DNA of 64,000 nucleotides from Candidatus Collierbacteria bacterium. Its GTDB lineage: Bacteria; Patescibacteriota; Microgenomatia; UBA1400; JACPES01. Below the pieces are notes generated by a model. That model was not told the DNA's origin, did no database searches, and worked only from the letters and a program-made list of their open reading frames with translations. Location of the stretch: the NCBI GenBank assembly GCA_016183365.1, contig JACPES010000003.1, forward strand, positions 13,726 to 77,725. The letters are read 5' to 3'. Made by a program: the position numbers and the translations under genes. Below are positions 4,574 through 37,092 of this stretch, piece after piece; position 1 is the stretch's first letter, and each line of letters begins with the position of its first letter.

Positions 4574-5371
4574 GTGAAATTTTTTCTGTGTCCCCTTAAT
4601 TTCAAAGTGAAACGCTTATTCAACTTTCAGAGATTAAAACAGTTGTTGGGCATTATGCTTATCTTGTTGGCTATTGTTTTTAGTCAGACTGTTTTAGTAG
4701 AAAAATTTGGTTTCAGTAACGTCGTTTACGCTCAAGTGCAATGCTGTACCTCACCGGCTCAAGTAACATTTGTTGGCGGAAATGTTTATTGTTCACTTCA
4801 TACCGGAACCGGCATTCCGACAAATTGCTCTGGATCAACCCCTAACTGTGATGTTGAAACTAACCAGTGTATTCCTATTCCCGACATTACTAATCCGCAA
4901 TGCTGTACCTCACCGGCTCAAGTAACATTTGTTGGCGGAAATGTTTATTGTTCACTTCATACCGGAACCGGCATTCCGACAAATTGCTCTGGGAACTGCG
5001 ACGTTCTAACTAACCGATGCATCAATTCTCTCCCCGGCGGCGGGCCGACGATCACCGTCTACGATCCGACGTGCAATTCTGGAACTGGATATTACGGTTA
5101 TTCCGGTGTTAAAAGTGCCTTGGGGTGTTTGCCGACTGATCCGCAAACGTTTATTAATACCGCCACCCCTTGGGCGGTGGGGATTGGAGCCGGAATTGCT
5201 TTTCTACTGGGGCTTTATGGAGCGCTGATGATTGTTATTTCCGCCGGCGACCCGGAAAAAATGCAGGCTGGCAAAGAAATTATTACCAGCGCGATTGCCG
5301 GACTATTATTAATAGTTTTTGCGGTTTTTATTTTAAGAATAATTGGGGTTGATGTATTAAAATTGTTTTAG
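4574..5371 (+). CDS. Secreted protein: duplicated Cys-rich module fused to a VirB2/TrbC-like pilin domain
   Basis: The signal peptide probably starts at MLILLAIVF. Two copies of QCCTSPAQVTFVGGNVYCSLHTGTGIPTNCSG are encoded by a 95-nt exact DNA repeat (4739-4833 and 4898-4992). The C-terminal pilin-like segment is TATPWAVGIGAGIAFLLGLYGALMIVISAGDPEKMQAGKEIITSAIAGLLLIVFAVFIL. Confidence 0.55.
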   Translation: MKFFLCPLNFKVKRLFNFQRLKQLLGIMLILLAIVFSQTVLVEKFGFSNVVYAQVQCCTSPAQVTFVGGNVYCSLHTGTGIPTNCSGSTPNCDVETNQCIPIPDITNPQCCTSPAQVTFVGGNVYCSLHTGTGIPTNCSGNCDVLTNRCINSLPGGGPTITVYDPTCNSGTGYYGYSGVKSALGCLPTDPQTFINTATPWAVGIGAGIAFLLGLYGALMIVISAGDPEKMQAGKEIITSAIAGLLLIVFAVFILRIIGVDVLKLF

Positions 5372-5388
5372 TCAAGAGTCATTAAATT

Positions 5389-5721
5389 ATGTTTATATCA
5401 CTAAGCGTGCTAGGTGTAGCTTTACCCGGAGGGGAAAGAGACCTTTTTTGGAGCGATCCGCTAGCGGGAAGGGGGAAGTTTGATGACATTGGAACGACTA
5501 TTACTTCTCTTCTCCCCTACCTTTTCATCATCGGCGGAATCGTGACGGGCGGAATGCTGATAATCGGCGGATTCGACATTTTAACTTCCATGGGCAGCGA
5601 AGAAAAACTAAAAAGCGGAGCGGAGAGAATCAAAAACGCCTTAATAGGGTTTTTATTGTTGTTCGCGGTTTATTGGCTGGCCCAAATCGCTCAAGTCCTT
5701 TTTAAAATACCTATTTTATAG
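5389..5721 (+). CDS. VirB2/TrbC-like pilin paralog 2
   Basis: Two hydrophobic helices separated by a GG..SMGSEEKLKSGAERIKNALIG loop, the same pattern as the other seven paralogs. Confidence 0.5.
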   Translation: MFISLSVLGVALPGGERDLFWSDPLAGRGKFDDIGTTITSLLPYLFIIGGIVTGGMLIIGGFDILTSMGSEEKLKSGAERIKNALIGFLLLFAVYWLAQIAQVLFKIPIL

Positions 5722-5761
5722 GGCCAAGGGACAAAGGCTAAGGGCTAAAGGCAGACAAAAA

Positions 5762-6121
5762 ATGCAAACAAAAAACAACCAGAGAACTGATTTACATGAA
5801 AGAATTTTTCGTTGGATAATTTCAGTTCTTAAACTATTAAAGACTGTCAATAAAGATGTCATCAGCATAGTAATAATTCAACAGTTGGCAAAATCATGTA
5901 CTTCTGTCGGAGCAAATGACCAGGAAGCAGTTACTTCTTCTAGCGACAAAGACTTTGTTTCTAAATATCAAATTGTAAAAAAGGAGCTTTCCGAAAGTAT
6001 TTATTGGCTAAGAATACTTAAAGAGATGTATCCTGACATTGACATTTCAAGCCAGTTAAACGAAAGCATTGAACTTCTTAGAATCATTAGTAAAATCATT
6101 CTCAACGTCAAGAATCGTTAA
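5762..6121 (+). CDS. Four-helix-bundle protein (23S rRNA intervening-sequence protein family)
   Basis: Signature SCTSVGANDQEAV.SSS.KDF..K..IVKKELSESIYWLRIL. The gene is flanked by the inverted repeats GGCTAAGGGCTAAAGG (5739-5754) and CCTTAGCCCTTAGCC (6173-6190). Confidence 0.6.
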   Translation: MQTKNNQRTDLHERIFRWIISVLKLLKTVNKDVISIVIIQQLAKSCTSVGANDQEAVTSSSDKDFVSKYQIVKKELSESIYWLRILKEMYPDIDISSQLNESIELLRIISKIILNVKNR

Positions 6122-6123
6122 GT

Positions 6124-6900
6124 TTGGTAAAATCTTTTCTAGAAATGAAAAAATCGTTTTCCCTTAGCCCTCATCCCTTAGCCCTTAGCCCTTTTCTCCC
6201 CCGGCACATCGCCATCATCATGGACGGCAACCGGAGATGGGCTAAAGCCCGCGGCCTGGCCGCCGTTATGGGCCATGACAAGGCGGCCCGCGACGTCATT
6301 GAGCCGATTGTTGATAGGGCGATCCAATTGGGAATAAAGTTTTTAACCTTTTGGGCTTTTTCCACCGAAAACTGGAAACGGGATAAAGCCGAAATCAGAG
6401 CATTAATGGGGATTTTCCGGGAAGGATTAGATAAATTGGGCGGTAAACTCAACGAAAAAGGCGTTCGTTTGAACGTCATTGGTGAAATGGAAAAATTCCC
6501 TGCAGATATCCAAGAAAAAACCAAGAAGTATATGGAGCTAAGCCGTGACAATATCCAAATCTCCGTCAGCTTCGCCCTGAACTATGGAGGAAGAGACGAA
6601 ATCCTGCGAGCCGTAAGACGGCTCTTCGAAAAAATTCGAAATTCGAAATTCGAAATTCGAAATTTAAACGAAGAAATGTTTGCGAAATTTCTTGACACCG
6701 CGGATATGCCGGACCCGGATTTGATCATTAGAACCGGCGGCGATCTGCGGTTATCCGGCTATTTTCCCTGGCAATCGGTATACTCGGAGTTATATTTCAC
6801 CAAAACCCTGTGGCCGGATTTCACCCCGAAGGAACTGGATAAAGCATTGGAAGATTACGAAAAACGAGAACGGCGATTCGGTGGCGGAGGGAGAAAATAA
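6124..6900 (+). CDS. uppS: Undecaprenyl diphosphate synthase
   Basis: Motif HIAIIMDGNRRWAKARGL and the usual UPP synthase core are present. The likely start is the ATG at 6145. The N-terminal extension is encoded by the CCCTTAGCC repeat, and an in-frame GAAATTC x4 repeat encodes KIRNSKFEIRNL. Confidence 0.85.
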   Translation: MVKSFLEMKKSFSLSPHPLALSPFLPRHIAIIMDGNRRWAKARGLAAVMGHDKAARDVIEPIVDRAIQLGIKFLTFWAFSTENWKRDKAEIRALMGIFREGLDKLGGKLNEKGVRLNVIGEMEKFPADIQEKTKKYMELSRDNIQISVSFALNYGGRDEILRAVRRLFEKIRNSKFEIRNLNEEMFAKFLDTADMPDPDLIIRTGGDLRLSGYFPWQSVYSELYFTKTLWPDFTPKELDKALEDYEKRERRFGGGGRK

Positions 6901-6902
6901 AA

Positions 6903-6985
6903 AAAATTGCTAAATTGTTATATTGTTAAATTGGAATACGCACCAATTAGTCCTGCAAAGCAGGATCTGGCTCTGCCAGACAATC
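6903..6985. repeat. About 80-nt hairpin repeat element, copy 1
   Basis: ATTGCTAAATTGTTATATTGTTAAATTGGAATACGCACCAATTAGTCCTGCAAAGCAGGATCTGGCTCTGCCAGACAATCCAGCAAT, containing a TCCTGC...GCAGGA stem-loop, followed by a CAATCTA heptamer array. Confidence 0.5.
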
Positions 6986-7030
6986 CAGCAATCCAACAAT
7001 CTAGCAATCTAGCAATCTGACAATCTAACA
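6981..7030. repeat. CAATCYA heptamer array running into the start codon of pilin gene 3
   Basis: CAATCCAGCAATCCAACAATCTAGCAATCTAGCAATCTGACAATCTAACAATG. Confidence 0.65.
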
Positions 7031-7360
7031 ATGTATTTATTCACAGTCAACATCGGCCAAGATTTAAAACTCCAGGACGATACTCCAATTGGCGACGTCA
7101 TCCAATTCCAAAGCGTCGGAGCCTTGATTTCCGCCTGGCTGCCAAATATTTATATTTTAGGCGGGATTATCGTCTTGATTCTAATCATTGTTTCCGGGTT
7201 TATGTGGATTACCAATGCCGGAAATATTAAAAAAATTGAAGAGTCTCAAAAGATCCTGACCTTTGCTATAATGGGTTTTATATTTTTGTTCGGGAGTTAT
7301 TGGATTATTCAAATAATTCAAGTCCTGACGGGAATACCGATATTGAATTCAAGTTTATGA
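7031..7360 (+). CDS. VirB2/TrbC-like pilin paralog 3
   Basis: Hydrophobic helix (ISAWLPNIYILGGIIVLILIIVSG), then FMWITNAGNIKKIEESQKILTFAIMGFIFLFGSYW. Confidence 0.5.
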   Translation: MYLFTVNIGQDLKLQDDTPIGDVIQFQSVGALISAWLPNIYILGGIIVLILIIVSGFMWITNAGNIKKIEESQKILTFAIMGFIFLFGSYWIIQIIQVLTGIPILNSSL

Positions 7361-7830
7361 AAATACTGAATGAAAAATACCGAATACTGAATAAAAAAAA
7401 GGGCGCATCTGACTTCCCTTATTCAGTATTCAGTATTCAGAATTCAGCATTCGTTTCTCTTGGCATCTTTGGCACCATTAAAAATCCTCTCGGCGATACT
7501 TTTGATAAAGCCGGAGGATACGCATCGGTTGAGGGCGGATTGGGGTTATTACTCACCAATCTCATCCGCTTAACTACCGTCGGCGCCGGCATTTGGTTTT
7601 TGGTCAATTTGATTACTGCCGGGGTGATGTATATCGGCTCCAACGGCGAAACCGAAAAAATCACTATAGCTTGGGCTAAAATTTGGCAATCGTTGATCGG
7701 CCTTTTGATAATCGTTAGTTCTTTGACCCTGGCAGCTATTATCAGTAAAGTATTTTTCGGTAGCTACTCCACCATTCTTAATCCGGTAATCTATGGTCCG
7801 GGCAATGCCGGAGGAGGAAAAATTCCATGA
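7357..7830 (+). CDS. VirB2/TrbC-like pilin paralog 4
   Basis: Starts at the ATG at 7357 (the ORF-track start at 7300 overlaps the previous gene). Core is GAGIWFLVNLITAGVMYIGSNGETEKITIAWAKIWQSLIGLLIIV. A TATTCAG heptamer repeat sits in the N-terminal region. Confidence 0.45.
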   Translation: MKILNEKYRILNKKKGASDFPYSVFSIQNSAFVSLGIFGTIKNPLGDTFDKAGGYASVEGGLGLLLTNLIRLTTVGAGIWFLVNLITAGVMYIGSNGETEKITIAWAKIWQSLIGLLIIVSSLTLAAIISKVFFGSYSTILNPVIYGPGNAGGGKIP

Positions 7831-8219
7831 CATTGACAGACATTAAGGCCGGCAATATTGGCGGTTTGCCTGACGGCTACCAGGCTATGCCGGCCTCCGA
7901 CGCTCCGGCCACTTTGGAAAAAATAATTTCCAACACAGTCGGATTTTTTACCGTGGTTGGAGGCTTGACATTTATCATTTATATCGTTTTAGCCGGCTTA
8001 ACCTGGATTACTGCCCGGGAAGAAGATGCCAGACTATCAAAAGCCAAACAAATGCTCACCAACGCCCTGATCGGGCTGGCCCTGATAGTTGTTTCTTGGG
8101 CCGTGGCCGGAATAATCGGGACTATTTTTGGATTTGACATTTTAAACCCGGGAAAATATATTGAAATGATATCGCCTGGCGGGAGCGGCGGCGATGAACG
8201 AGAAAAAAGATCATCATGA
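7827..8219 (+). CDS. VirB2/TrbC-like pilin paralog 5
   Basis: FFTVVGGLTFIIYIVLAGLTWITAREEDARLSKAKQMLTNALIGLALIVVSWAVAGII. It overlaps its neighbours by 4 nt, consistent with an operon. Confidence 0.5.
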   Translation: MTLTDIKAGNIGGLPDGYQAMPASDAPATLEKIISNTVGFFTVVGGLTFIIYIVLAGLTWITAREEDARLSKAKQMLTNALIGLALIVVSWAVAGIIGTIFGFDILNPGKYIEMISPGGSGGDEREKRSS

Positions 8220-8617
8220 AACGAATCTTTTATTTATCTATTTGCCTATTTGTCTATTTGTCTATTCTGTCTGCCTCTGCCTATGCCGCCGGCATCACCA
8301 ATCCGGCTCTTGCGGACGATCTGGGGAGGGGGGATCCGGCGAATGTTTTTGGCCGGTTCGTGGGAAGCTGGTGGGGATTGGCGTATGTCATCGGCGGATT
8401 GCTGTTTTTGCTTTACCTGGTGTGGGGCGGAGTGGAATGGATCATGGGCGGTGGCAATAAAGACCGGATCGAAAGCGCCAAAAATAAAATTTCCAACGGT
8501 ATTTTAGGGCTGACCCTGCTGGCTGCGTCGTTCGCGTTGGTAAAGGCAATTGGATTTGTGTTGGGAATTGATTTATTGGAAACTTTGACTTTTGATTTAT
8601 CCAGACTGGCGCCGTAA
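8216..8617 (+). CDS. VirB2/TrbC-like pilin paralog 6
   Basis: Signal peptide MKRIFYLSICLFVYLSILSASAYA. Core is WWGLAYVIGGLLFLLYLVWGGVEWIMGGGNKDRIESAKNKISNGILGLTLLAASFALV. The signal peptide is partly encoded by a TCTATTTG repeat. Confidence 0.5.
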   Translation: MKRIFYLSICLFVYLSILSASAYAAGITNPALADDLGRGDPANVFGRFVGSWWGLAYVIGGLLFLLYLVWGGVEWIMGGGNKDRIESAKNKISNGILGLTLLAASFALVKAIGFVLGIDLLETLTFDLSRLAP

Positions 8618-8669
8618 TCAATGTTTTGGTAAACTAACTGGAATGTGTTTGAAAAGGAGGTGAGAAATT

Positions 8670-9026
8670 ATGTCATTATTATCAACAGTGTTTGCGGCAG
8701 GAAGCGGAGATATTAATATCGGCCCCAAAGCAACGGCGGCCGGAGTGGACAAAGTAGGCACTATCGGTGATTTAATTGGCGCGGCCATTGGCTCGGCATT
8801 CTTAATCGCCTTCCTGCTGGTATTCGTAATGCTGGTTTTTGGCGGCGTCCAATGGATTACTTCCGGCGGAGACAAAGAAAATACCCAAAAAGCCAAAGAC
8901 CGGATAACTTCCGCTTTGGTGGGAATAGCGATCATCGGCGGAGCTTGGGCTTTAATGAGAGTTGTAGAATTTTTCTTCAACATCGATATCTTGGGTGGAT
9001 TCAAATTGCCGTCGGCGGCGCAATAA
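8670..9026 (+). CDS. VirB2/TrbC-like pilin paralog 7
   Basis: Preceded by an AAGGAGGTGAG ribosome-binding site. Core is GAAIGSAFLIAFLLVFVMLVFGGVQWITSGGDKENTQKAKDRITSALVGIAIIGGAWALM. Confidence 0.5.
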   Translation: MSLLSTVFAAGSGDINIGPKATAAGVDKVGTIGDLIGAAIGSAFLIAFLLVFVMLVFGGVQWITSGGDKENTQKAKDRITSALVGIAIIGGAWALMRVVEFFFNIDILGGFKLPSAAQ

Positions 9027-9043
9027 ACGCGATCCGAATAAGA

Positions 9044-9178
9044 TGATGTCTTGAAGGTGGAAGATGGAAGTCCTTGATCTTGAAACCTTGACGAATCACC
9101 ATCGAGGATTCAAGGTAGCAATCACATCAAGTTCAAAAACCTCAAGAGCATCCATCTTCAAAACATCTATTTCGTGGA
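9044..9178 (+). repeat. About 140-nt palindromic intergenic element, copy A (between pilin genes 7 and 8)
   Basis: Starts GATGTCTTGAAG...CTTGATCTTGAA.CCTTGAC and ends ...ATCAAGTTCAA.AA...CAAGAGCATCCATCTTCAAAACATC. The two ends are inverted repeats of each other. Confidence 0.6.
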
Positions 9179-9211
9179 TTAGTATCGCTTTTCTCTGCTA
9201 TACTTTCAGAT

Positions 9212-9547
9212 ATGAGAGTGTGGGCAGTCGGATTAGTCACCAATGATGCTCCGAATTCTTTGGCCGATATTGAAACGGTAATTAAGAATTTATTGGGATC
9301 GGCTGCCAGCCTGATTGGGTTGGCTATTTTTGTGATGCTGGTGGTCGGAGCCTTTCAATACATTACTTCCGGAGCGGACCAAAAAGCTGTGGAAAAATCC
9401 CGACAAGTATTCACTTTTGCCTTGATGGGCGGAGCCGCGATCATAATTTTATGGCTGGTATTTGTTTTCCTGAAAGAATTCACCGGCATTGACTTACTGA
9501 AGTTTAATATTTGTATATTTCAAGATGAATTCTGCAAATTGCCGTGA
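9212..9547 (+). CDS. VirB2/TrbC-like pilin paralog 8
   Basis: ASLIGLAIFVMLVVGAFQYITSGADQKAVEKSRQVFTFALMGGAAIIILWLVFVF. Confidence 0.45.
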   Translation: MRVWAVGLVTNDAPNSLADIETVIKNLLGSAASLIGLAIFVMLVVGAFQYITSGADQKAVEKSRQVFTFALMGGAAIIILWLVFVFLKEFTGIDLLKFNICIFQDEFCKLP

Positions 9548-12411: not shown

Positions 12412-13992
12412 TTGATGGACAAATTTTGTGATATGCTATTTGTAATGAAGCGCGTCTGCCGCCGGCTGACAACTATCTTAACTATCTTAACGATTCTGGC
12501 CCTGCTGCGGCCAGTCTTCGCCCAGGACATCAAGGAAAATCCCTATTGGCGCCAGAGCACCACTTCCCAAGTCCAGGAGGTTGAGGTGGGGCCGGAAAAC
12601 GAAGTCACCGCTCCCCGCTACACCTATTTCCAAACCAATACTACTTTTAACGCCATCAGCGCCGGAATTCTCGATCCCACCGGCCAAAATCAATCGGCAG
12701 CTGTGCCGCTATTGGGCCGGTCCATTGCCTTGCTTACCGGCCGGCCGCCGGTCCAAACCCATGAATATCTGGCGTATATGGCAAGCAAGGCTGGGTTTAT
12801 TGACCAGGCTTACGCCCAGTCAAGAGGCGGGTTTGAGGTCTTACAGCCGATTCAAAAATTATGGATTGCCACCCGAAACATAGCCTACTTGATCACTTCC
12901 CTAACTTTAGTAGTAATTGGATTTATGATCATGCTGCGGAAAAAAATCGACGCCCAGACAATTGTCGGGGTCGAACAGGCTTTGCCGAATTTGGTCATCA
13001 CCCTGCTTTTAATTACCTTTAGCTACGCCATTGCCGGATTTGTGATTGATATGATTTATTTCGTGTCGTTTTTTGGAATTAAATTGCTAGCCCTGAATAA
13101 CATTTTTGCTCCAGGAGACTACGGCAGTGCCGCCATTGAAACCATCAGAACTAAATCCATCTTCTCTATCGGCATCCGGGATCTATTCCGGATTGGCGGC
13201 ACCAGCGCCGGCTCGGCCGAAACCGCCGCGGACGCCGTCGGCAATTTAATCGCGGAATTATTGGGCGAGGGCAAACTGTTCGCGGCTACGCAAATAATTT
13301 CCCAGCCGATCGCTTACGTCATTTTCGCCGTCGCGATTTTGTTCGCGGTTTTTAAGCTGTTCTTTAGCCTTTTGATGGCGTATATCCAAATAATTTTATT
13401 GGCCATATTGGGGCCGCTGCAACTGATGCTCAACGCCTTGCCGGGGAGTGACGCATTTTCTAAATGGTTTAGAAATCTTTTGGCTAACGCCATGGCTTTT
13501 CCGGCTGCCATTATGATGCTGGTCTTCGCCGCCGCTCTGATGGGCCAAACCGGCGAACATTTTAGGATTGCCGACGACATTGGTTTTACCGATAGCGTAA
13601 GCGGGGTTAAATGGATCCCGCCCTTGGTTTTCGGAAGCGGGGCCGGAGCCACCAATCCCGTCGACGCGGTCATCGCCCTGATCGGAATCGGGATCCTGCT
13701 GATGACACCCAAGGTCGTGGATATGGTCAAAGAAGCCATCCAAGCCCCCGAATTCAAGTACGGCTCCGCCATCGGCGAAGCGGTTGGGTTTGGGTGGTCA
13801 CCAATTAAACGTGGTTGGGGAGCGGGAACCGACATAGCAAGACAAGAAAGACAATTCAGAGAACAAGCCAGAATTTGGGGCAAAGAAGATTTATCACCAT
13901 ATCAACCGCCAACAGGACAACAACCTACTCGCTGGACAGATTTGAGGGGTCGCCTCGGTGCATTTGGACGCCGATTTACGGGTTTGCAATAA
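12412..13992 (+). CDS. Polytopic membrane protein, VirB6/TrbL-like
   Basis: Signal peptide followed by at least six TM helices (e.g. LITSLTLVVIGFMIML and LVITLLLITFSYAIAGFVIDMIYFVSFFGI). It sits directly downstream of the pilin array. Confidence 0.4.
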   Translation: MMDKFCDMLFVMKRVCRRLTTILTILTILALLRPVFAQDIKENPYWRQSTTSQVQEVEVGPENEVTAPRYTYFQTNTTFNAISAGILDPTGQNQSAAVPLLGRSIALLTGRPPVQTHEYLAYMASKAGFIDQAYAQSRGGFEVLQPIQKLWIATRNIAYLITSLTLVVIGFMIMLRKKIDAQTIVGVEQALPNLVITLLLITFSYAIAGFVIDMIYFVSFFGIKLLALNNIFAPGDYGSAAIETIRTKSIFSIGIRDLFRIGGTSAGSAETAADAVGNLIAELLGEGKLFAATQIISQPIAYVIFAVAILFAVFKLFFSLLMAYIQIILLAILGPLQLMLNALPGSDAFSKWFRNLLANAMAFPAAIMMLVFAAALMGQTGEHFRIADDIGFTDSVSGVKWIPPLVFGSGAGATNPVDAVIALIGIGILLMTPKVVDMVKEAIQAPEFKYGSAIGEAVGFGWSPIKRGWGAGTDIARQERQFREQARIWGKEDLSPYQPPTGQQPTRWTDLRGRLGAFGRRFTGLQ

Positions 13993-21618: not shown

Positions 21619-21631
21619 CTATAGTAAACAC

Positions 21632-22960: not shown

Positions 22961-22974
22961 AAGTATATGATAAC

Positions 22975-27173: not shown

Positions 27174-27537
27174 TCAAACCTCTCTTTTGTTTGTTTTGCT
27201 CGCCTCATCTGGTCCGCCACTATCCTCCGTCAGAACATAGAAAACCTTCGGCGCAGTCCCTACTTTAATTAAAATTCCAGCAGTAACCAATTTCTTTAGC
27301 TGTCGATGAATGGCAATACTCCCTATCCTTAGAAACTCTACCAAGTCGATGACTCTAGCCCGACTGTTCGCTTGGATAAAAATGTATGGCCGTCCCGCCT
27401 TTAAAAACGATTTGGTGATTTTTGGAATATTCATAAAGCCGGCTCAAGAAAAGCAATTGCAGGTATTCGCGGACCACTGTCGCGTCATTGGTCTTATATT
27501 GGCGGGAAAAAGGTGTTAATTGGGCCAGGGAAATCAT
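27174..27537 (-). pseudogene. AbiEii-like nucleotidyltransferase toxin, frameshifted and truncated
   Basis: One frame gives the N-terminus ...LYEYSKNHQIVFKGGTAIHFYPSEQSG then a stop. A second frame continues SRARVIDLVEF... (RxSxDIDL-like). The total is far shorter than a full AbiEii. It is adjacent to the abiEi-like gene. Confidence 0.4.
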
Positions 27538-28165: not shown

Positions 28166-31100
28166 ATGGTAACCACTACCCGCGATCAAATTGCCGTCGC
28201 CGCCATCCAAGACATTCTCCGCCGTGAAGATTATCAGCCCGAACTCTTAAAAGACATGGCCAAAGCCTTGGCCAAGGCCAGGAATGTTCTGCCGCCGCCG
28301 GATGCCATCATCGTCCGGAACAAAGTTTATTCCTTAAAAACCATCGAGGAACGCCTGGTTCAATTTATCCACTATCTGCCGCCGGATAATCGTCCGGAAA
28401 TTACCGATACATCCTTCTATGACGAAAATTTCTTGAATCAATTAATTTCTATTATTGACGAAGTCTCGGGATTCGCTCCATCCCCTAAGGCAAAAGTTTC
28501 CATGGACGCGGTAGTCCCTGCTAATCTCCAAGAATTGCTCGAGGCCCAAGCCAAAGCCACCGCCGAAAAAAAACAAGCCCTCGGCCGGCCGTCGCAACTT
28601 ACGCAACAAATCAAACAAGCCCAGGAAATCGGCATCCGCAGCCAGCTTTTAAGGGTCGCCGTTTCCCGGCGCTTGTACTTGACACTGTTGGAATCTTCAT
28701 ACATCAAAGACTTGCAAGTTATCTATGGCAAAGAAACAGTCAATCAATTTTTAACGCAAAGAATTGACTTAGCCGTCAATCAGTCCATCACTGCCTTGGC
28801 GATGAACCAGCTGGGATTATCCGATCCCGCCAATGCCGCCGCCTATTTCACCTCTCAATTGGAAAAAAATCTCAAAACCGATCGCAACCTGGCAGTGGCT
28901 TTGGCCAAAACCCCCAAAATCAGCCGGAAAAACGCCTTGGTTGACGCTAAAAATTTAGCCGGGGATGCGGTTGCCGAAATCCAACCCGCCGCCGAAGCAT
29001 TTAGGGCCGAACAGGATTCCTCTCCGATTTATCGCGCCACAGCCCAAGAAATTGCCCAAGGCGAGATTGAGGCCGCCCTGGCAAAATCCGGACAACAACT
29101 TTCCAAAAAACAAGCTAGCCGTCTGGCTGATACCTTGGCTAAATACTCCGATCACTCGGACAAACAATTGCTGATTCTAAAACGGATTCTCCCCGGAATT
29201 TCACCGGAAACAGGACAGGAAATGATTGGTCGTCTTCAACCGGCTATTTCGGCTTTAGCCAGAAGCTCCGACCATCCGTCTATCGCCGAGACTATAAATG
29301 AAGCCTCGTTGATTAATTTGGCCCGGACTAATCCGGCCCTTTTCCCTTTTAGATTAATGGCGGCCATCCGCGGCAATCGGCTGTCTGACGGAGAAACCGT
29401 CGCCTTAACTGTCAGACTCTCGCAACAATTAAGGGTTTCTCTTGATTATGTCGCTCTAAGATTATCAGGGATCAATGCCAAAGATTTGCAAGGCCATCTT
29501 GTTTCTTTAACCAAAGGCCTGCCAGTATTAGGACTTTTGCCTACTCGGCCACCCATAAATCCCAATAGTCCCATTTTCAGACGCTTGAATGACGCCTTGC
29601 CCGGAGTTAGTCAGATAGATAGGGCCAAAGAAGAATTTCAATTCAATCCGATTGCTTCCGGCCTTAATCTGCGGAGCAACTGGTACTCAATAACTCACTT
29701 TTTTAATGTCGGTAAAGCTATTCGCTACAACCTGGGCCGCTTGCCATCAATCAATAGAATGGCTTCTTCCGCTCAAACCGTATTCTCCGGGTTAAGGATC
29801 CGGTCAGGAATCGCCAATTCTGCTTTCAGTTTCTTTACCTCGGTTTCCGGAGGCATTGGCAAACTTAGGTCGGCCGCCGCCTACCCTTTCCGGGCCGTAG
29901 GCTCTGTAATCTCCGCCGGCTGGAGTAAGGCCAAATCCTGGGCCGGAATCCAAGTTAAAGCCGGTCTGGCTAAGGCCGGAGCCTGGCTGGCCAAAAAAGG
30001 CGTCACTGCCGCTGCCACTAAATTAGGTCTGATAGCGGTAGGCAAGGGAGCGGCCGCGCTTTTGGCTCAAGCCGTCCCCATCGCCGGCCAGATCTTCGCC
30101 GCCGCCCTAATCGGCGGCGACATCCTCAAATTCCTCTGGAATAACCGCAAAGAAATCGGGGCTGGCTTGGCGGGGATGTTTTTCCTGGGACAAATGATTT
30201 TGGCAAAAATTCTGGGATTCCTTGGCGCTGCCGCGTGGACCTTGGGCGGGGGGATTCTTGGAGGAGTTATCGGATTCGCGATCGGCGGACCGATTGGAGC
30301 CGTCGTCGGAACTCTGGTCGGCGGCACAATCGGCTATTTGATTTCTTCCGGCGCCCTCGGTTCCGCTCTTGCCGGCGTCGCCGGGTGGCTGGGCTCGATC
30401 GCCGTCGGAATTGGCTCATTCATCGCTACGATTACTTCACCCGCCGCTCTTGCCGGCGTCGCCGGCACGGTGGCCACCGTCAGCGTCGTCGGCGCCATCG
30501 GCGGCGGGGCTTTTCTGGCAATCCAAAACCAGCATGCCCAAACCGCCGCCCTCTATGTCCAAACCGCTGCTCCAGACAGTTTCGGCCGCGGCCGGGGGGC
30601 GGATATTCCCGCTTGCTGGCCGACGTCAGGAACCATCGCCCAAGGGCCATATAACGACCGGCCGATTGTTTGCCAAAGCGGTGGCAAGGTGGTAACTTGT
30701 TCTCATGCCGCTTACAATTCCAACGCCGTCGACATTGCCAAGAGCCCTGTCGGCGAGCCGGTTTACGCCAGCCACGACGGTGTCGCCACCGCTTTCGCCT
30801 TCAGCCCGGTGGCCGAATTTGGCAATTACGTGATCGTCCAGTCTTCTCCTAAAGGTTTCCTGACTATCTATGCCCACCTCCTAGAATTCGACTTACCCAC
30901 CGGAGTTCCCACTCAAATCACCGGCGGCACGCGAATCGGCCTCATGGGTACCAGCGGTAACAGCACCGGACCACATCTGCACTATGAGCTAAATAATGAC
31001 GGACACATCGATACAATTGTGCCACAATACAATCTTTACGATACCGTCGCCTACGACCCGGTTTGCATCGGCCAGTCATCATCCTCGATCAGTGGCTGGA

Positions 31101-31768
31101 TTTCTCGGGTGTCCGGCGCCAACAACGTCATCGCCACCACTAACACCGAATACGACGCCACCGGCGGCGAGGGGATAAACGCCTGCACTTGGCTGGAAAA
31201 ACACGGTGAAGCGTCGGTGGCTGTCAACGCCAATTTCTTCGAAGCCCAAAGCACCAAGAAAATTCCTCGCGGTCCGGCGTCATACCGGCTGGATCCGATT
31301 CCCCATTCGCTGGATCCCCGCTACAGTTTTTGGAGCATTTATGCCAGTGGCTCGAACTTCACGCTTGGACCGGCAGACATTGCTACCCGGCCGCATCAGT
31401 TTGCCGTCTCCGGTTCGCCATTACTAATTCGCGGCAACACAGCGATGCCAATCCCCGATACCTCTGATGGTCCGCAGCATTTTGTCTGGCACACCAAAGA
31501 TACCCGACTAGCGATGGGCTTCACTGGCGCGTCAGCCGTGATCGTCGTTCTGGATAATGCTACGGTCAAGGACATGCAAAAATTCCTACTGTCACAGAAT
31601 ATCCAGAACGCCATCAATCTCGACGGCGGCTCGTCGGCGACGCTGTGCGAGCGAACCGGCTCGGGCGTCATATCCATCATCAGCACCGGCCGAAAGTCGG
31701 CCAACAGCATTGGCTTTATCGGCGGGACGATCGAAAAAATTACCGGCGGACTGGCTCCGGGACCCTAG
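28166..31768 (+). CDS. 1200-aa cell-wall hydrolase: cytoplasmic N-domain, glycine-zipper TM cluster, M23 peptidase and phosphodiester-glycosidase domains
   Basis: M23 motifs HDGVATAF...GTSGNSTGPHLHYE. C-terminal NAGPA-like NLDGGSSATL. The central Gly-rich region has multiple predicted TM helices (GAGLAGMFFLGQMILAKILGFLGAAAW...). It sits at the start of the second T4SS block, in the position a PrgK/VirB1 analogue would occupy. Confidence 0.65.
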   Translation: MVTTTRDQIAVAAIQDILRREDYQPELLKDMAKALAKARNVLPPPDAIIVRNKVYSLKTIEERLVQFIHYLPPDNRPEITDTSFYDENFLNQLISIIDEVSGFAPSPKAKVSMDAVVPANLQELLEAQAKATAEKKQALGRPSQLTQQIKQAQEIGIRSQLLRVAVSRRLYLTLLESSYIKDLQVIYGKETVNQFLTQRIDLAVNQSITALAMNQLGLSDPANAAAYFTSQLEKNLKTDRNLAVALAKTPKISRKNALVDAKNLAGDAVAEIQPAAEAFRAEQDSSPIYRATAQEIAQGEIEAALAKSGQQLSKKQASRLADTLAKYSDHSDKQLLILKRILPGISPETGQEMIGRLQPAISALARSSDHPSIAETINEASLINLARTNPALFPFRLMAAIRGNRLSDGETVALTVRLSQQLRVSLDYVALRLSGINAKDLQGHLVSLTKGLPVLGLLPTRPPINPNSPIFRRLNDALPGVSQIDRAKEEFQFNPIASGLNLRSNWYSITHFFNVGKAIRYNLGRLPSINRMASSAQTVFSGLRIRSGIANSAFSFFTSVSGGIGKLRSAAAYPFRAVGSVISAGWSKAKSWAGIQVKAGLAKAGAWLAKKGVTAAATKLGLIAVGKGAAALLAQAVPIAGQIFAAALIGGDILKFLWNNRKEIGAGLAGMFFLGQMILAKILGFLGAAAWTLGGGILGGVIGFAIGGPIGAVVGTLVGGTIGYLISSGALGSALAGVAGWLGSIAVGIGSFIATITSPAALAGVAGTVATVSVVGAIGGGAFLAIQNQHAQTAALYVQTAAPDSFGRGRGADIPACWPTSGTIAQGPYNDRPIVCQSGGKVVTCSHAAYNSNAVDIAKSPVGEPVYASHDGVATAFAFSPVAEFGNYVIVQSSPKGFLTIYAHLLEFDLPTGVPTQITGGTRIGLMGTSGNSTGPHLHYELNNDGHIDTIVPQYNLYDTVAYDPVCIGQSSSSISGWISRVSGANNVIATTNTEYDATGGEGINACTWLEKHGEASVAVNANFFEAQSTKKIPRGPASYRLDPIPHSLDPRYSFWSIYASGSNFTLGPADIATRPHQFAVSGSPLLIRGNTAMPIPDTSDGPQHFVWHTKDTRLAMGFTGASAVIVVLDNATVKDMQKFLLSQNIQNAINLDGGSSATLCERTGSGVISIISTGRKSANSIGFIGGTIEKITGGLAPGP

Positions 31769-31786: not shown

Positions 31787-32785
31787 ATGACAGCAGTGAA
31801 AAACAAATTAAACCAACTATTACGACTGCTGCAGACCCACTGGCTGCTTACTGTCCTGGGCCTGGTTATCATCTTAATACCCATAATTATTTTGATCCGC
31901 GGGCAAAGACCGCCCCGGGTGACTGTGCCGCCGCCAGAAATTACCGGTCAGGTTCCGAATAAAGCCGTCCGCAGCATCACCTACACTGGCCAACAGTTAA
32001 TCCTGCCAAAGACAATGGTTGTTTACCGTAACACTGCCAGTGAACTATCGCTGATGAACCTAGTCAAACGGATCGCTACCAGCCGAAATTTACCTCCCTC
32101 CCCCAACAGTTCCACCCTGTGGGTGTCTGGCGAAACCGGCGAGTATGTCCATTTGGATCAAGCCCACGGCGTGGTCACTTACGGCCAAAATTTACCACCG
32201 GAAGATGCGCCCGCTCCCCAGACAGACCGCGCTCGCCAGCTGGCCCAGCAGTGGGTAAAAGACACGCTATCGCTGACGGTCCGCCCGGATGAGAAAAATA
32301 TCAAGTATTTTGCCGTTTCCGGCTCACAACTGGTGCCGGTCGATCCCGGCAGCGCAGAGGTGATCGAGATCCCGTTGAATTTAACGATTGGCCAATACCC
32401 GGTGATGATTGGCAATGCGGCTATTCCAGTTGCCACCGTCAGCGTCGGCCGCAATCACACAATCAATCGAGCCATCCTCAAACCATTTGCCCTGACTCCG
32501 ATGTCCGCTAGCGAACTACCAACAATTGATTTATCCACCATCGTCAAAAACCTGACGGATAAAGCCGAGATTATTAGCATTATGCCGGAAGCGCCAATTG
32601 ATACCAACGCTCATCCGCCCACGGAAATTACCCTAACCGAAGTCCAAATCCAATATCGTCTCGATCCCAATACCAATCTCATCTACCCTTATGTCGCTTT
32701 TACCGGCACCGCCAAACTCCAGGGTGAATCTGTCACGGCCGACGTAAACGTGATTTCTCCCGTCGTTAACACCGCTGCCCCCTAA
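31787..32785 (+). CDS. Bitopic membrane protein, possible VirB8/TcpC/PrgL analogue
   Basis: N-terminal TM helix (LLTVLGLVIILIPIIILI) followed by a ~300-aa extracytoplasmic domain. The size and position match a VirB8-like component, but no motif confirms it. Confidence 0.3.
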   Translation: MTAVKNKLNQLLRLLQTHWLLTVLGLVIILIPIIILIRGQRPPRVTVPPPEITGQVPNKAVRSITYTGQQLILPKTMVVYRNTASELSLMNLVKRIATSRNLPPSPNSSTLWVSGETGEYVHLDQAHGVVTYGQNLPPEDAPAPQTDRARQLAQQWVKDTLSLTVRPDEKNIKYFAVSGSQLVPVDPGSAEVIEIPLNLTIGQYPVMIGNAAIPVATVSVGRNHTINRAILKPFALTPMSASELPTIDLSTIVKNLTDKAEIISIMPEAPIDTNAHPPTEITLTEVQIQYRLDPNTNLIYPYVAFTGTAKLQGESVTADVNVISPVVNTAAP

Positions 32786-32844: not shown

Positions 32845-34035
32845 TTGGGAAGTTTCGCAAGCTTCCGTCTCTCCTTGTTACCCCTCTTCCACCAGTATAA
32901 AATTAACCCTATGATTGAACACCCTATTCCTCAAAATGTCACCAGCTACCAGTTCCGCCTCATCGGCGATATGACTTTAAAACAATTCATCGAATTGGCC
33001 GGAGGAGTAGTGGCCGGCTGGCTGATTTGGAGCCTTGATCTGCCAGCAATTATCCGGTGGCCCATGGTAATCATGGCGGTAATTTTGGGGTTTGGATTGG
33101 CGTTTATGCCCCTGGAAGATCGGCCGCTGGATCAATGGTTTATCGCCTTTTTCCGGGCCATTTACCGGCCAACCATTTTTGTCTGGAAAAAAGCTGTCCG
33201 CGATGATATTTTAAGCTTTCAGGCTAGCCCGGCAGAATCAAAATCCGTTTTAGAATCTGCGGTTAAAATGCCCACGGCCAAGCTTGAGTCTTTGTTGGCC
33301 GGCTATAAGATAAATGAGGCAGTAGAAGCCGATCCATTACTGGATGCTTGGGAAAAACGCTTGGCAGCCGTTCCGCAATTATTTTCCGAAGTCACGGTGC
33401 CTAAAAAACTAGCCGACGTAACCGTCTTTCCTCAAGTCAGGGCGGTAGATTTAAGCTATCACGTTTCGGATTTAACCCCAGTCCTCCATCCATTAACTCC
33501 ACCAGAGGATCCGGATGCCATTCTGCGGGGGGAAATTACTTTACCGGCCCACCGTCTCCGAGTCCCGCAGAATTTACCGATAGCCATTGGCGATGCCCCG
33601 GCTAAACCTGCACTTCTCGTCAAACGCGGAGATTCTTTAAGTCAAATAGGGACATCTGAAATCAAACTCCCGTCTTTTAATACGGCCGTTGTCAAGTCCA
33701 GAACCGGAGCCGTTTCGGCAACAGTAATGCAATCCTTAATCTTGCCATCCAGCCCATCTATTCCTAATGTCCTGACCGGAATTGTGGTAACTTCAGACGG
33801 ACAAATCGCTGACAATGCCATTGTTGAAATCCGGCGCCTGACCGATCATCTACCGGTTAGAGCCGTTAAATCCAATAAACTCGGACATTTTGCCATTGCC
33901 ACTCCTTTAGAAAATGGAAGTTATGAAATCCTGACGGACAAAGACGGTCTGGCCTTTGGTATACTCAAAATTGACGTCGGGGGCTTGATTATGCCGCCGA
34001 TTGAAATTAGAGCAAAAAAAGAAAAGATGTCTTGA
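32845..34035 (+). CDS. PrgI/VirB3-like membrane protein with a C-terminal beta-sandwich extension
   Basis: N-terminus YQFRLIGDMTLKQFIELAGGVVAGWLIW...PMVIMAVILGFGLAFMPLEDRPLDQWFIAFFRAIYRP matches the PrgI-family layout. It lies upstream of VirB4, as prgI does before prgJ. Confidence 0.5.
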   Translation: MGSFASFRLSLLPLFHQYKINPMIEHPIPQNVTSYQFRLIGDMTLKQFIELAGGVVAGWLIWSLDLPAIIRWPMVIMAVILGFGLAFMPLEDRPLDQWFIAFFRAIYRPTIFVWKKAVRDDILSFQASPAESKSVLESAVKMPTAKLESLLAGYKINEAVEADPLLDAWEKRLAAVPQLFSEVTVPKKLADVTVFPQVRAVDLSYHVSDLTPVLHPLTPPEDPDAILRGEITLPAHRLRVPQNLPIAIGDAPAKPALLVKRGDSLSQIGTSEIKLPSFNTAVVKSRTGAVSATVMQSLILPSSPSIPNVLTGIVVTSDGQIADNAIVEIRRLTDHLPVRAVKSNKLGHFAIATPLENGSYEILTDKDGLAFGILKIDVGGLIMPPIEIRAKKEKMS

Positions 34036-34177: not shown

Positions 34178-34870
34178 TTGCCTATGCCTGTCCAACCTAT
34201 AATTTCTACCACCCAGGATCATTTACCCGTCCACGACATCCAGGAAAATCTGGTAGTTTTAAAAAACGGCTCGGCGGCCATGGTAATCGAAACCTCGGCG
34301 GTTAATTTCGGCTTGTTATCTCAAGGAGAACAAGACGCGATTATTTACGCTTACGCCGCTCTATTAAATTCTCTCAATTTCCCGATTCAAATTTTAATCC
34401 GCTCCGAAAGAAAAGATATCAGCGCCTATCTAGGATTATTGGCCGCGGCGGCAAAAAAACAAATGTCTCCCACTAAACGGGCTTGGATTGAATCTTACCG
34501 CCATTTTGTGGCCGAAACCGTCCAGCGCCGCAACGTCTTAGACAAAAAATTTTATATTATTTTACCCTTTTTGTCATTAGAACTGGGCTCTGCCAAATCT
34601 TTGGGGCTAGCCGTAACCAGCCAAAATCGGCTGCCGGCGCCGTTGACAGAAATTGTCAAAAAGGCTTTGGTGGCCCTGGGGCCGAAGCGCGACCACGTTA
34701 TCAGGCAATTGGAAAGAATCGGTTTAACCGCCAGGCAATTAATCAATAAAGAACTTTTGTCTCTTTTATACCGCACTTATAACCCCGGATACGCCGCCCC
34801 GGAAATCGATGCCGTCAACTTAACCGCTCCCCTGGTGGAGCCGATTATCAAAGATAACAAAATATTATGA
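34178..34870 (+). CDS. Hypothetical protein resembling a VirB4 N-terminal domain
   Basis: TTQDHLPVHDIQENLVVLKNGSAAMVIETSAVNFGLLSQGEQDAIIYAYAALLNSLNFPIQILI parallels the N-terminus of the adjacent VirB4 (TTIQDILAPDAIEVDFTHLKIGNRLVRTLFVAGYP). It overlaps the virB4 start by 4 nt. Confidence 0.35.
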   Translation: MPMPVQPIISTTQDHLPVHDIQENLVVLKNGSAAMVIETSAVNFGLLSQGEQDAIIYAYAALLNSLNFPIQILIRSERKDISAYLGLLAAAAKKQMSPTKRAWIESYRHFVAETVQRRNVLDKKFYIILPFLSLELGSAKSLGLAVTSQNRLPAPLTEIVKKALVALGPKRDHVIRQLERIGLTARQLINKELLSLLYRTYNPGYAAPEIDAVNLTAPLVEPIIKDNKIL

Positions 34871-37092
34871 AGATTCCTTTAATCACCAATATTTTTAAGA
34901 CTAAAAAACCGGAGAATCCAAAAAATCAAGATATTTCGCCGGCAATGCAGTTTGCCCAGGGAATTACCACTATTCAGGATATCTTGGCCCCGGATGCAAT
35001 TGAGGTTGACTTTACCCACCTTAAAATCGGCAACCGGCTGGTCCGAACCCTATTTGTGGCCGGTTATCCGCGTTTTGTGGCCGCCAACTGGCTGTCTCCT
35101 TTGATAAACTTTGACCACTCTTTGGACGTTTCCATGTTTGTTTATCCGGTTGAAGGCAAGGGCGTTTTGGAAAATCTGCGGCGGAAAATCACCGAAATGG
35201 AAGCCGAGATTAATTCCGACCTGCAGCGCGGCCGGCTGGCCAATATTGATACTCAAGTCAAGCTGGAAGACGCCAAAGGGCTGCAGGAACAGTTGGCCAA
35301 GGGGTCTGAACGTTTTTATCAATTTAGCCTGTACGTGACCATCGGATCAGACACCGAAGAAGAACTGAATCAGATCTCCAAACAAATTCAATCCACATTA
35401 GGGTCTCTTTTGATCATTGCCAAACCGGCGTCTTTCGTCATGGAACAAGCCTTTAAAACCACTCAACCGCTGGGTCAGGATTTTTTAAATATTACCCGGA
35501 ATATGGATACCACTTCTCTGGCAACCACTTTTCCGTTTACTTCCAGCGAACTCTCGGCCAATGAGGGAATTTTATACGGAATCAACGAGCATAATGATAG
35601 TTTGGTGGTATTTGACCGCTTTTCCAGAGAGAACGCGAATATGGTCGTATTTGCAAAATCGGGCGCGGGAAAGTCGTTTTTCGTCAAACTTGAAGCCCTG
35701 CGGTCGTTAATGTTTGACACCGAAGTTATCGTCATCGATCCGGAGGACGAATATCACCGGATGGCCGACGCCGTCAACGGCCAATATATTGATTTTAGTT
35801 TTTCATCCAAGGTTAAAATAAATCCTTTTGACCTTCCCTCTTACGCCCGCGGAGAATCCGGACAGGCAGGAGAAAACGAACTATCGCAAAAATTGCTTTC
35901 GCTTCACGCCCTAATGAAAATAATGCTTGGGAGCATGGACGCCACCCAAGAGGCCATCTTAGATCGAGCCTTAATCGCCGCCTATAAAGCCAAAGGCATC
36001 AGCCCCAATCCGGAATCGTTTAATAACGAACCCCCTCTTTTGGAGGATTTATATAAATCTTTGATTGGAATGGAGGCCCCGGGAGCCGAGAACTTGGCCG
36101 CCAGATTGGAAAAATTTGTCAAAGGCAGTTTCCGCGGACTGGTGGACCAAAAAACCAATGTCAACTTGACCAGCGACTTTATCGTCTTTGGAATCAAGAA
36201 TCTGGAAGACGCGCTCCGGCCGGTGGCCATGTTTATGATTCTGGATTTTATTTGGACCAAAGTAAAATCCCAACTTAAGCGCCGGCTATTAATAGTAGAC
36301 GAGGCTTGGTATTTGATGAAAAACCAGGATTCAGCCCTGTTTTTATACTCTATGGCCAAACGAGCCCGTAAATATTATTTGGGGTTGACTACCATTACTC
36401 AAGACGTCGAGGACTTCTTGCATTCTGACTACGGTAAGGCTATCGTCACCAATTCCAGCATTCAAGTCCTGATGAAGCAGTCGGCGGCGGCGGTTGACTC
36501 TCTCCAAGAAGCCTTTTATCTATCCGCCGGGGAGAAACAACTCTTAATGGCTTCAGAAATTGGCGAAGGGTTGTTTTTTGCCGGCCAAAACCATGTGGCC
36601 ATTAAGGTTGTCGCCAGCCCGGAAGAACACAAATTAATCACCAGCAAGCCGCAGGAAATATTAGAAATGGCAAAGCAACGGGGACAACCCGAGGAGAGCG
36701 CCAACCCCGTAATTGCGACACCACAACGTCCCGATTTGATCGGGGGGAGTGGCGAGCATACTACTGGGGTTCCGGAGAGCAATTACTGGAAACCTCCAAA
36801 ACCGGCCGGACAGGAGTCTTTGGCTCTAAATGAAATCGAAGTGGACGTAATTAAAGATCAGAATACTCTAAAAACTCAGATTGCCGGAGAATCGGAAAAT
36901 AAGAGAGTCGGGCTATCGGATAATCGAATTTCCAGGAAGCCGGCAACTCCCGAGCCTCCGAATCTCCGGCAATCTGGCCATCCGAGTGTTCCGAGTATTC
37001 AGAAAACTCCGCTAGCCCCAAATGCCGCCGTCCAACCATCCATCGAATTTACTTCGATATTTGAAACTCAGCCGAAAAAAACAACAGAATAG
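34867..37092 (+). CDS. virB4: VirB4/TrbE/PrgJ-family T4SS ATPase
   Basis: Walker A VFAKSGAGKSFFV, Walker B RRLLIVDEAWYLM, and the TTITQDVEDF motif. The N-terminal domain pattern is typical of Gram-positive VirB4. It has a C-terminal Pro-rich tail. Confidence 0.8.
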   Translation: MKIPLITNIFKTKKPENPKNQDISPAMQFAQGITTIQDILAPDAIEVDFTHLKIGNRLVRTLFVAGYPRFVAANWLSPLINFDHSLDVSMFVYPVEGKGVLENLRRKITEMEAEINSDLQRGRLANIDTQVKLEDAKGLQEQLAKGSERFYQFSLYVTIGSDTEEELNQISKQIQSTLGSLLIIAKPASFVMEQAFKTTQPLGQDFLNITRNMDTTSLATTFPFTSSELSANEGILYGINEHNDSLVVFDRFSRENANMVVFAKSGAGKSFFVKLEALRSLMFDTEVIVIDPEDEYHRMADAVNGQYIDFSFSSKVKINPFDLPSYARGESGQAGENELSQKLLSLHALMKIMLGSMDATQEAILDRALIAAYKAKGISPNPESFNNEPPLLEDLYKSLIGMEAPGAENLAARLEKFVKGSFRGLVDQKTNVNLTSDFIVFGIKNLEDALRPVAMFMILDFIWTKVKSQLKRRLLIVDEAWYLMKNQDSALFLYSMAKRARKYYLGLTTITQDVEDFLHSDYGKAIVTNSSIQVLMKQSAAAVDSLQEAFYLSAGEKQLLMASEIGEGLFFAGQNHVAIKVVASPEEHKLITSKPQEILEMAKQRGQPEESANPVIATPQRPDLIGGSGEHTTGVPESNYWKPPKPAGQESLALNEIEVDVIKDQNTLKTQIAGESENKRVGLSDNRISRKPATPEPPNLRQSGHPSVPSIQKTPLAPNAAVQPSIEFTSIFETQPKKTTE

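Follow-up and report, generated by a model that had tools for sequence, protein, structure and literature searches.

A probable type IV secretion wall hydrolase with an exchangeable lytic cassette on a conserved membrane scaffold in a Collierbacteria bacterium

Type IV secretion systems (T4SSs) are well known to include wall hydrolases in which a cytoplasmic N-terminus and a membrane anchor are combined with multiple lytic domains. PrgK (pCF10), which binds PrgL, consists of an N-terminal cytoplasmic part and a transmembrane (TM) helix, with LytM, SLT and CHAP domains on the extracellular side; its LytM domain is degenerate, carries no metal and is inactive (PMC11323569). The T4SSs of Patescibacteria are MPF_FATA-like, commonly contain TrsD and PrgI, lie near the origin and dnaA and have no relaxase; a recognisable VirB1 is rarely located next to virB4 in them, other hydrolases may fill its role, and M23 domains have been noted among the VirB1-like proteins (Quinonero-Coronel et al. 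2025, PMC12102498). One species of Saccharibacteria, the only one tested, cannot grow epibiotically without its T4SS (Wang et al. 2023, PMC10633639). The present analysis concerns a 1200-residue protein encoded in a 64,000-nucleotide stretch of DNA, referred to as the window, from a Candidatus Collierbacteria bacterium (GenBank assembly GCA_016183365.1, contig JACPES010000003.1, positions 13,726 to 77,725 of the forward strand). With a probability of roughly 0.68, this protein is a resident, membrane-anchored wall hydrolase dedicated to a T4SS, a functional analogue of VirB1 and PrgK that combines a Collierbacteria-type scaffold with an exchangeable lytic cassette. The direct basis of this reading is formed by the domain identities, the conserved gene order, the exchange of modules and the asymmetry in charge and cysteine. 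The system served is best explained as the chromosomal, Gram-positive-type (MPF_FATA-like) T4SS of the bacterium, and the best candidates for functional analogues appear to be VirB1, PrgK, TraG (pIP501), TcpG and CwlT.

The open reading frame (ORF), which an earlier note made from the sequence alone had placed at 28166–31768 with a length of 1200 residues, is genuine and has exactly these limits. Its ATG start is supported by the N-terminus M-x-T-T-T-R-[DE]-Q common to nine homologues, and the product is identical to a Collierbacteria protein in NCBI, encoded on a 588-kb contig and named ‘peptidoglycan DD-metalloendopeptidase family protein [Candidatus Collierbacteria bacterium]’, with no other annotation. 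The protein is divided as follows (all on the + strand):

28166..31768, +, whole ORF, 1200 residues: probable T4SS-associated membrane-anchored hydrolase (NCBI identity)
28166..29677, +, residues 1–504: conserved N-terminal domain, predicted cytoplasmic, without Cys and without any hydrophobic segment
29678..30022, +, residues 505–619: juxtamembrane region, strongly basic and devoid of acidic residues, in which PFRAVG and GLAKAGAWLAKKG are conserved motifs
30023..30535, +, residues 620–790: multi-helix membrane cluster rich in Gly and Ala
30608..31015, +, residues 815–950: M23 metallopeptidase module with a non-canonical first motif
31211..31717, +, residues 1016–1184: NAGPA-like domain (phosphodiester glycosidase), D1153-GGSS being the motif of its catalytic loop (Pfam)

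Concerning its genomic position, the gene heads a block that ends with virB4, as had been claimed, and dnaN and then dnaA follow beyond VirB4 on the opposite strand. The genes downstream of the hydrolase are:

31787..32785, +, 332-residue bitopic membrane protein: N-terminal TM helix, Pro-rich linker, extracellular domain
32845..34035, +, PrgI (VirB3-like) protein with a C-terminal extension (PrgI, E 7.7e-08)
34178..34870, +, TrsD/TraD-family (TraC-like) protein of 230 residues (NF041427, E 6.8e-08, profile positions 14–200 of 201, below the curated cut-off)
34867..37092, +, VirB4 ATPase of the CD1110 family (MPF_FATA-like), 741 residues (379 bits against a cut-off of 325)

A comparison with other T4SS loci from candidate phyla radiation (CPR) bacteria, which had been suggested earlier, revealed the same position of the hydrolase in six related loci. 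Wherever the flank of a locus is long enough (L001, L003, L004, L008, L009 and L012), a family member is found directly upstream of its T4SS genes; together with the window, this makes seven of seven loci linked to PrgI-TrsD-VirB4, down to an identity of about 22%; members only 22–38% identical keep the position, including those of L008 (P0146, 22%) and of L009 (P0134). The order bitopic protein, PrgI-like, TraC-like/TrsD and VirB4 is seen in five of the six relatives' loci, two small ORFs on the opposite strand taking the place of the bitopic gene in L008. The wall-remodelling role comparable to PrgK, TcpG and VirB1 that the earlier note had put forward is thus supported by the synteny of six loci as well as by the relatives equipped with CHAP and SLT_3 domains described below. 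The locus shares with the T4SSs described for Patescibacteria an MPF_FATA-type VirB4, TrsD and PrgI, the vicinity of dnaA and dnaN, arrays of VirB2-like pilins and the lack of a relaxase nearby (PMC12102498, PMC10633639), whereas the scaffold family is not mentioned in the survey of these systems (PMC12102498) and supplies a VirB4-linked hydrolase for the Collierbacteria-type loci. The hydrolase and its relatives fill, for these loci, a gap in the still incomplete list of CPR T4SS parts.

Of the seven family loci, all but L008 have a gene for a bitopic protein just after that of the hydrolase, and such a gene occurs in L006, too. These neighbours belong to at least three barely related or unrelated types, i.e. 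proteins of about 170 residues, some of them Big_5-like, of 195 residues and of 330–350 residues. The 332-residue protein of the window is a candidate docking partner of the hydrolase, possibly in a VirB8- or PrgL-like role. It should be noted that the type of the neighbour appears to change together with the lytic cassette.

The scaffold family is rare and narrow. A word-indexed homologue search yielded 10 proteins, 48–100% identical, and starting it from a divergent alignment brought no others; when the profile of residues 1–800 was searched exhaustively with HMMER, there were 22 matches at E ≤ 0.001 among 1.84 billion representatives. The GTDB genomes added one further species representative, a Collierbacteria metagenome-assembled genome, and the JGI metagenomes five loci. 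The conserved scaffold begins with the N-terminal domain, continues through the basic juxtamembrane region and includes the membrane cluster, up to ‘...N-S-A-x-F-V-P’, past which the sequences of the members are no longer homologous. The C-terminal modules found behind this point are:

M23 and NAGPA: the protein of the window
Divergent M23-like and NAGPA: P0002–P0005
M23 alone: P0009, P0141, P0149 and L004
SLT_3: P0007 (29.3 bits against a cut-off of 27)
CHAP, below threshold: P0131, P0134 and P0146 (21.7–23.7 bits against 26), and weakly P0132
Module with an HExxH motif: P0010, P0133 and P0150

Since CHAP and SLT_3 are classical domains of Gram-positive T4SS hydrolases, their presence on the same scaffold supports the reading as a T4SS hydrolase. 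The unequal pace of change within the block is evident from the comparison of the window with locus L003, in which the identities amount to 92% for the TrsD/TraD-family (TraC-like) protein, 90% for DnaA, 84% for VirB4, 80% for the PrgI-like protein and 75% for DnaN, in contrast to 61% for the hydrolase scaffold (residues 1–800) and 43% for the NAGPA part, the M23 part and the downstream bitopic gene being not alignable at all; it is thus the envelope-exposed parts of the block that change fastest. The conserved scaffold could be used to find more such hydrolases, the turnover of the cassette makes it testable whether the system cuts its own wall or that of a host, and in metagenomes the type of cassette could be an indicator of the wall chemistry of the host.

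The same subtype of the M23 module, with the signature WP...I-[AS]-QGPY...SH, is common to the window and to L006 from another CPR lineage. There, a 1469-residue protein (its C-terminal fragment at L006 1–749) heads the same kind of block; its TM anchor is a different one, of the classical hydrophobic kind, and its M23 module has the form WP..ISQGPY..SH-x6-D. The lytic module is therefore combined with more than a single anchor among the T4SS loci of the CPR. In the L006 genome, virB4 is located on the other side of dnaA/dnaN. A protein of 1490 residues upstream of the Beckwithbacteria block (L005) was treated as unrelated, no segment of it exceeding the TM threshold and no similarity being visible by eye.

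With regard to the topology, the absence of a signal peptide stated in the earlier note is confirmed by the highest 19-residue Kyte-Doolittle mean, which is 0.52 within the first 60 residues and 0.97 within residues 1–600. The first hydrophobic segment starts no earlier than at about residue 620, in agreement with the long N-terminal region (about 640 residues) that had been read ahead of the membrane part. The segment described as a dense run of glycine-zipper helices corresponds to residues 620–790, where 38 Gly and 32 Ala are accompanied by just 7 charged residues and the pattern GxxxGxxxG occurs 6 times, compared with 1.7 ± 1.4 in shuffled sequences, 1.1% of which reach 6; the Pfam match to Gly-zipper_Omp stays below the threshold (17.6 bits against a cut-off of 25). 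The cluster is composed of a conserved hairpin-like segment with Pro638, the loop GD-x2-KF-x-W-x-NR, the zipper GG-x3-G-x3-GGP-x-GA-x2-G-x3-GG and two further hydrophobic helices. The loop, the zipper core GG-x3-G-x3-GGP-x-GA and the invariant Pro574 in PFRAVG are common to the whole family, its remotest members included. As for the families Gly-zipper_Omp and Gly-zipper_YMGG (PF13488/PF13441), the zipper pattern recurs here, with weak matches in the protein of the window and sub-threshold ones in five relatives; the differences are that all matches are below the cut-off and that the zipper is one element of a larger membrane cluster, in a bacterium presumed to be monoderm.

The distribution of charges and cysteines favours an arrangement with the N-terminus inside and the C-terminus outside. 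In the protein of the window, the 100 residues lying 150 to 50 positions upstream of the charge-free block contain 15 Lys/Arg and no Asp/Glu; in 18 of 19 family members, the 100 residues ahead of the cluster carry 10–18 Lys/Arg against 0–6 Asp/Glu, and in 15 of the 19 the net charge of the 50 residues past it is negative or zero. The scaffolds contain a single cysteine in 15,039 residues, compared with 140 in 4,985 (2.8%) for the C-terminal modules, most of which have an even number of them; the mean for the proteins of the window is 0.48%. All identifiable C-terminal modules of the family are, moreover, of wall-lytic or zinc-peptidase types. Charge bias, cysteine distribution and domain types together support the N-in/C-out topology, with an odd number of membrane crossings as its probable consequence, and they lend support to the extracytoplasmic location of the catalytic domains that had been assumed from the start. 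The Cys-free N-terminus was considered and rejected as a sign of export; it is uninformative by itself because VirB4 and DnaN of the window are equally without cysteine.

Searches of Pfam, NCBIfam, PHROGs and the PDB, and of plasmid and phage records, found nothing related to the scaffold or to its N-terminal part, the best hit of the PDB profile search with the N-terminal scaffold—HtpG at E 0.017—being judged a chance one. For the membrane region (residues 501–810), Pfam at E ≤ 10 returned only the sub-threshold glycine zipper and no match of the VirB6, TrbL or PrgH type.

The first catalytic module is a member of Peptidase_M23 (PF01551, MEROPS M23), matched at residues 852–946 with E 1.5e-16 and 60.8 bits against a cut-off of 28.7 (Pfam); NCBIfam adds only models of M23-type peptidoglycan endopeptidases (equivalog-type), and solved M23 enzymes are matched down to E 4e-13. 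The motifs listed in the earlier note were correct in part: both the M23 assignment and the motif HLH (H937, H939) hold, whereas HxxxD is not present in its canonical form, the HNGID of the structure 9gy1 being aligned to S852-N-A-V-D856 with His847 upstream. The His nearest to D856 is this H847, which gives H847-x8-D856, and the whole signature of the module reads WP..G.I.QGPY...S846-H847-x8-D856, followed by H904 (YAHL) and H937-L-H939. H904, H937 and H939 are invariant in six aligned modules and D856 is retained in the protein of the window; a [ST]H pair precedes the Asp in four of four close M23-bearing members with variable spacing. We read the first motif as split, with H847 as a candidate upstream ligand.

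The second catalytic module, the NAGPA-like domain of the earlier note, is borne out by a Pfam match of NAGPA (PF09992) at residues 1016–1184 with E 5.4e-12 and 46.7 bits against a cut-off of 25, covering almost the full profile (positions 3–168 of 169). The catalytic Asp is kept (D1153) in the loop D1153-G-G-S-S, which retains the Asp and two Gly and has the third Gly replaced by Ser; the loop of the relatives is DGGSK. Weak profile matches were obtained with the vertebrate NAGPA structures 6pku and 6pky (E 0.002, 27 residues around the loop) and with the bacterial DUF2233 structure 3ohg (E 0.018, 89 residues). The domain thus has in common with NAGPA and the bacterial DUF2233 proteins (PF09992) the full-length Pfam match and the catalytic Asp in a conserved Gly-rich loop, while it differs in the form DGGSS of the loop, in the fusion to an M23 peptidase and a membrane scaffold, and in its occurrence in a T4SS operon. 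In the plasmid collection, the NAGPA part found three weak matches, none covering more than 56% of the query and none near conjugation genes. NAGPA enzymes, NAGPA itself being called the uncovering enzyme, cut GlcNAc-α-1-phosphodiesters (GlcNAc, N-acetylglucosamine) and not glycan strands (PMC13474241). The idea of an enzymatic toolkit different from that of PrgK, TcpG and VirB1, i.e. an endopeptidase plus a glycosidase, is right only in part: PrgK has a LytM/M23 domain as well, and cutting of glycan strands is not what NAGPA enzymes do.

The mechanism that we infer extends to the membrane-crossing parity, the enzymatic activities, the substrates, the docking partners and the choice between own and host wall. 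The first approximately 620 residues, i.e. the helical conserved domain and the very basic juxtamembrane segment, would stay in the cytoplasm, the cluster of glycine-zipper-rich helices (residues ~620–790) would cross the membrane an odd number of times, and the Cys-containing 400 C-terminal residues would be located outside. There, the M23 module may cut the peptide cross-links of peptidoglycan and the NAGPA-like module may remove material linked by GlcNAc-1-phosphodiesters, its likeliest target—judged by the chemistry alone—being the linkage unit, with its GlcNAc-1-P, by which glycopolymers of the wall are attached to N-acetylmuramic acid. Both modules would open a local gap in which the T4SS and its VirB2-like pilus could assemble or reach a partner cell, with the N-terminal part and the membrane cluster acting as a lineage-specific scaffold that would dock the enzyme to the machine and accept different lytic cassettes.

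The closest counterpart of such a protein is PrgK, together with TraG, TcpG (pCW3) and CwlT (ICEBs1), with which it has in common a gene in the T4SS operon and, according to the predicted topology, a cytoplasmic N-terminus, an anchor and several extracellular wall-hydrolase domains. Like PrgK, it has an M23/LytM domain with a non-canonical active site, and its bitopic neighbour could dock in the way PrgL does (PMC11323569). In contrast to PrgK, the cytoplasmic part is about 620 residues long and unrelated in sequence, the anchor is a glycine-zipper cluster of 170 residues instead of one helix, and the protein has no SLT or CHAP domain, adding a NAGPA-like one in a cassette that is exchanged between close relatives. 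It should be pointed out that the protein is not filed as a sequence member of the PrgK group because it is without SLT and CHAP and both its anchor and its cytoplasmic part are unrelated. We have found no description of the conserved scaffold or of the strict way in which it is linked to virB4 in Collierbacteria-type genomes, nor of the exchange of the cassettes or of a NAGPA-type domain in a T4SS hydrolase.

Several points weigh against the assignment as a resident wall hydrolase. Evolution is much faster in the hydrolase and the protein encoded downstream of it than in the ATPase parts, which remodelling of the own wall alone does not obviously explain. In the M23 module, Ser852 occupies the position of the canonical first zinc ligand and, as in PrgK with its degenerate, inactive LytM domain (PMC11323569), the module could be degenerate and regulatory. 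The catalytic-Asp loop reported to be invariant in NAGPA is DGGGS (PMC13474241), whereas that of the NAGPA-like domain reads DGGSS. Pfam detects no SLT/lysozyme, lytic transglycosylase, muramidase, CHAP or NlpC-P60 domain in the protein. The number of helices within residues 620–790, counted by eye, is ambiguous, 6 or 7; if it were 6, both ends would lie on one side of the membrane. The AlphaFold2 models are unusable, their mean predicted confidence (pLDDT) being 43.7 for residues 1–800 (9 sequences) and 32.2 for residues 786–1200 (5 sequences), owing to shallow alignments; only residues ~150–450 reach 60–80, all of them helical, from which residues 1–504 can be taken with low confidence as mostly helical. 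Finally, the whole reading, the activity of the M23 and NAGPA-like modules on peptidoglycan or diesters included, is a prediction from sequences.

Among the other explanations, the one that survives best, while still unlikely, considers the protein a VirB6/PrgH-type translocon subunit of Microgenomatia fused through the multi-helix cluster to a VirB1-like enzyme. The gene is found at the place that prgH has in pCF10-type operons, ahead of prgI and prgJ, and its product is the sole multi-pass protein of the 28–37 kb block; VirB6-type proteins are, on the other hand, unlike the Gly/Ala-rich, weakly hydrophobic helices seen here. VirB6 homologues are reported to be scarce in Microgenomatia (PMC12102498), which would agree with such a fusion, yet no TrbL/VirB6/PrgH-type match appears even at the permissive Pfam limit given above and tblastn revealed no match to any plasmid record. 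The window also contains a second T4SS locus, where an array of seven VirB2-like pilin genes is followed by a more conventional candidate:

4574..9547, +, second T4SS locus: seven VirB2-like T4SS_pilin (PF18895) genes (Pfam), small and with 2 TM helices, at 4574–5371, 5389–5721, 7031–7360 (weak), 7827–8219, 8216–8617, 8670–9026 and 9212–9547
6124–6900, UPP synthase gene interrupting the pilin array
9544–12408, +, 954-residue protein with 18 Cys and no family match, directly after the pilin array
12412..13992, +, 526-residue protein with 8 predicted TM helices and no hidden Markov model match, possibly in the role of VirB6

The 526-residue protein is plausibly the better VirB6 candidate, albeit a highly diverged one, and its existence removes the argument that the 1200-residue protein must be the channel subunit; once this ORF had been found, we abandoned the proposal that the latter, as the sole polytopic protein of the T4SS, had to be VirB6. 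The pilin array itself matches the type of VirB2-like array reported for Microgenomatia and Saccharimonadia.

Ranking behind it, and improbable, is the possibility that the protein is not resident but exported by the T4SS in the manner of a tape-measure protein, its Gly-rich segment entering the membrane of a host and its lytic cassette digesting the host wall, so that the ultrasmall epibiont could tap its host. Phage tape-measure proteins have a long helical region and a Gly-rich hydrophobic segment followed by a C-terminal lysin, and the likeness extends to the types of that lysin (M23, lysozyme or CHAP) and to its modularity. The missing signal peptide would agree with export, as would the differences between the cassettes of close relatives and the evolution of the protein and its neighbour, faster than that of DnaN, VirB4 and TrsD and resembling that of host-range determinants. 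The T4SS of Saccharibacteria, essential for epibiotic growth, is without relaxase and coupling protein (PMC10633639; PMC12102498), and a delivered hydrolase would explain both the importance of relaxase-less T4SSs for epibiotic life and the fast turnover of the cassette, which would then be matched to the host wall, M23 for cross-links and the NAGPA-like domain for GlcNAc-1-P-linked polymers. Homology to phage proteins is, however, absent in PHROGs and in tblastn against 50,697 phage records, and the neighbours are T4SS and replication genes with no phage tail context. The positive-inside signature and the acidic, Cys-rich C-terminal flank fit a resident N-in/C-out membrane protein, the fixed first place in a structural operon is typical of machine parts, and a hydrophobic cluster of 170 residues would need chaperoning, for which no candidate was seen.

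The view that the gene encodes an ordinary housekeeping wall hydrolase or a LytM-type division factor lying beside T4SS genes near the replication origin by chance—in favour of which one may cite the plain DD-metalloendopeptidase name in NCBI, the frequency of M23 proteins in division and the gene density of the origin region—is very improbable in the face of the constant PrgI-TrsD-VirB4 linkage, the extreme rarity of the scaffold and the swap of the catalytic domain for CHAP, SLT_3 or HExxH, which would be unexpected for such an enzyme.

Several observations on the gene and its surroundings may be added. A scan for promoters and terminators was uninformative. The GC content is 0.59–0.64 in the membrane cluster, where it is raised because of the Gly and Ala codons, 0.52–0.58 in the lytic part and 0.47–0.49 in the N-terminal part; the slight excess of the lytic over the N-terminal part is not decisive for a recent acquisition of the former. 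Between the two T4SS loci, a run of ORFs on the minus strand (window 14048–27043) encodes proteins of 790, 349, 191, 371, 435 and 626 residues, six of which were scanned without a match in Pfam and three without a match in NCBIfam. Those of 435 and 626 residues are rich in Ala, Glu and Pro and free of Cys, and could be T4SS-related cargo or surface proteins. The PrgI/VirB3-like proteins are long, 313–396 residues (window 32845–34035, + strand; L006 2820–3944; L007 2862–3803), and those of the relatives end in a CarboxypepD_reg-like domain, an uncommon feature in the VirB3 type. VirB4 contains an intein (Intein_splicing and LAGLIDADG_3; 1272–1297 residues) in several close Collierbacteria relatives, L001 (16120–20013), P0012, P0013 and P0014, the VirB4 of the window being intein-free. 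Genes of antitoxin and toxin types occur at window 27534–28100 (− strand), L001 6221–8868 and L009 1260–1892: just upstream of the hydrolase gene of the window, a divergent gene encodes an AbiEi-family antitoxin, genes of the AbiEii toxin type occupy the equivalent upstream spot in relatives, and a RelB/YafQ pair is inserted within the T4SS block of L001.

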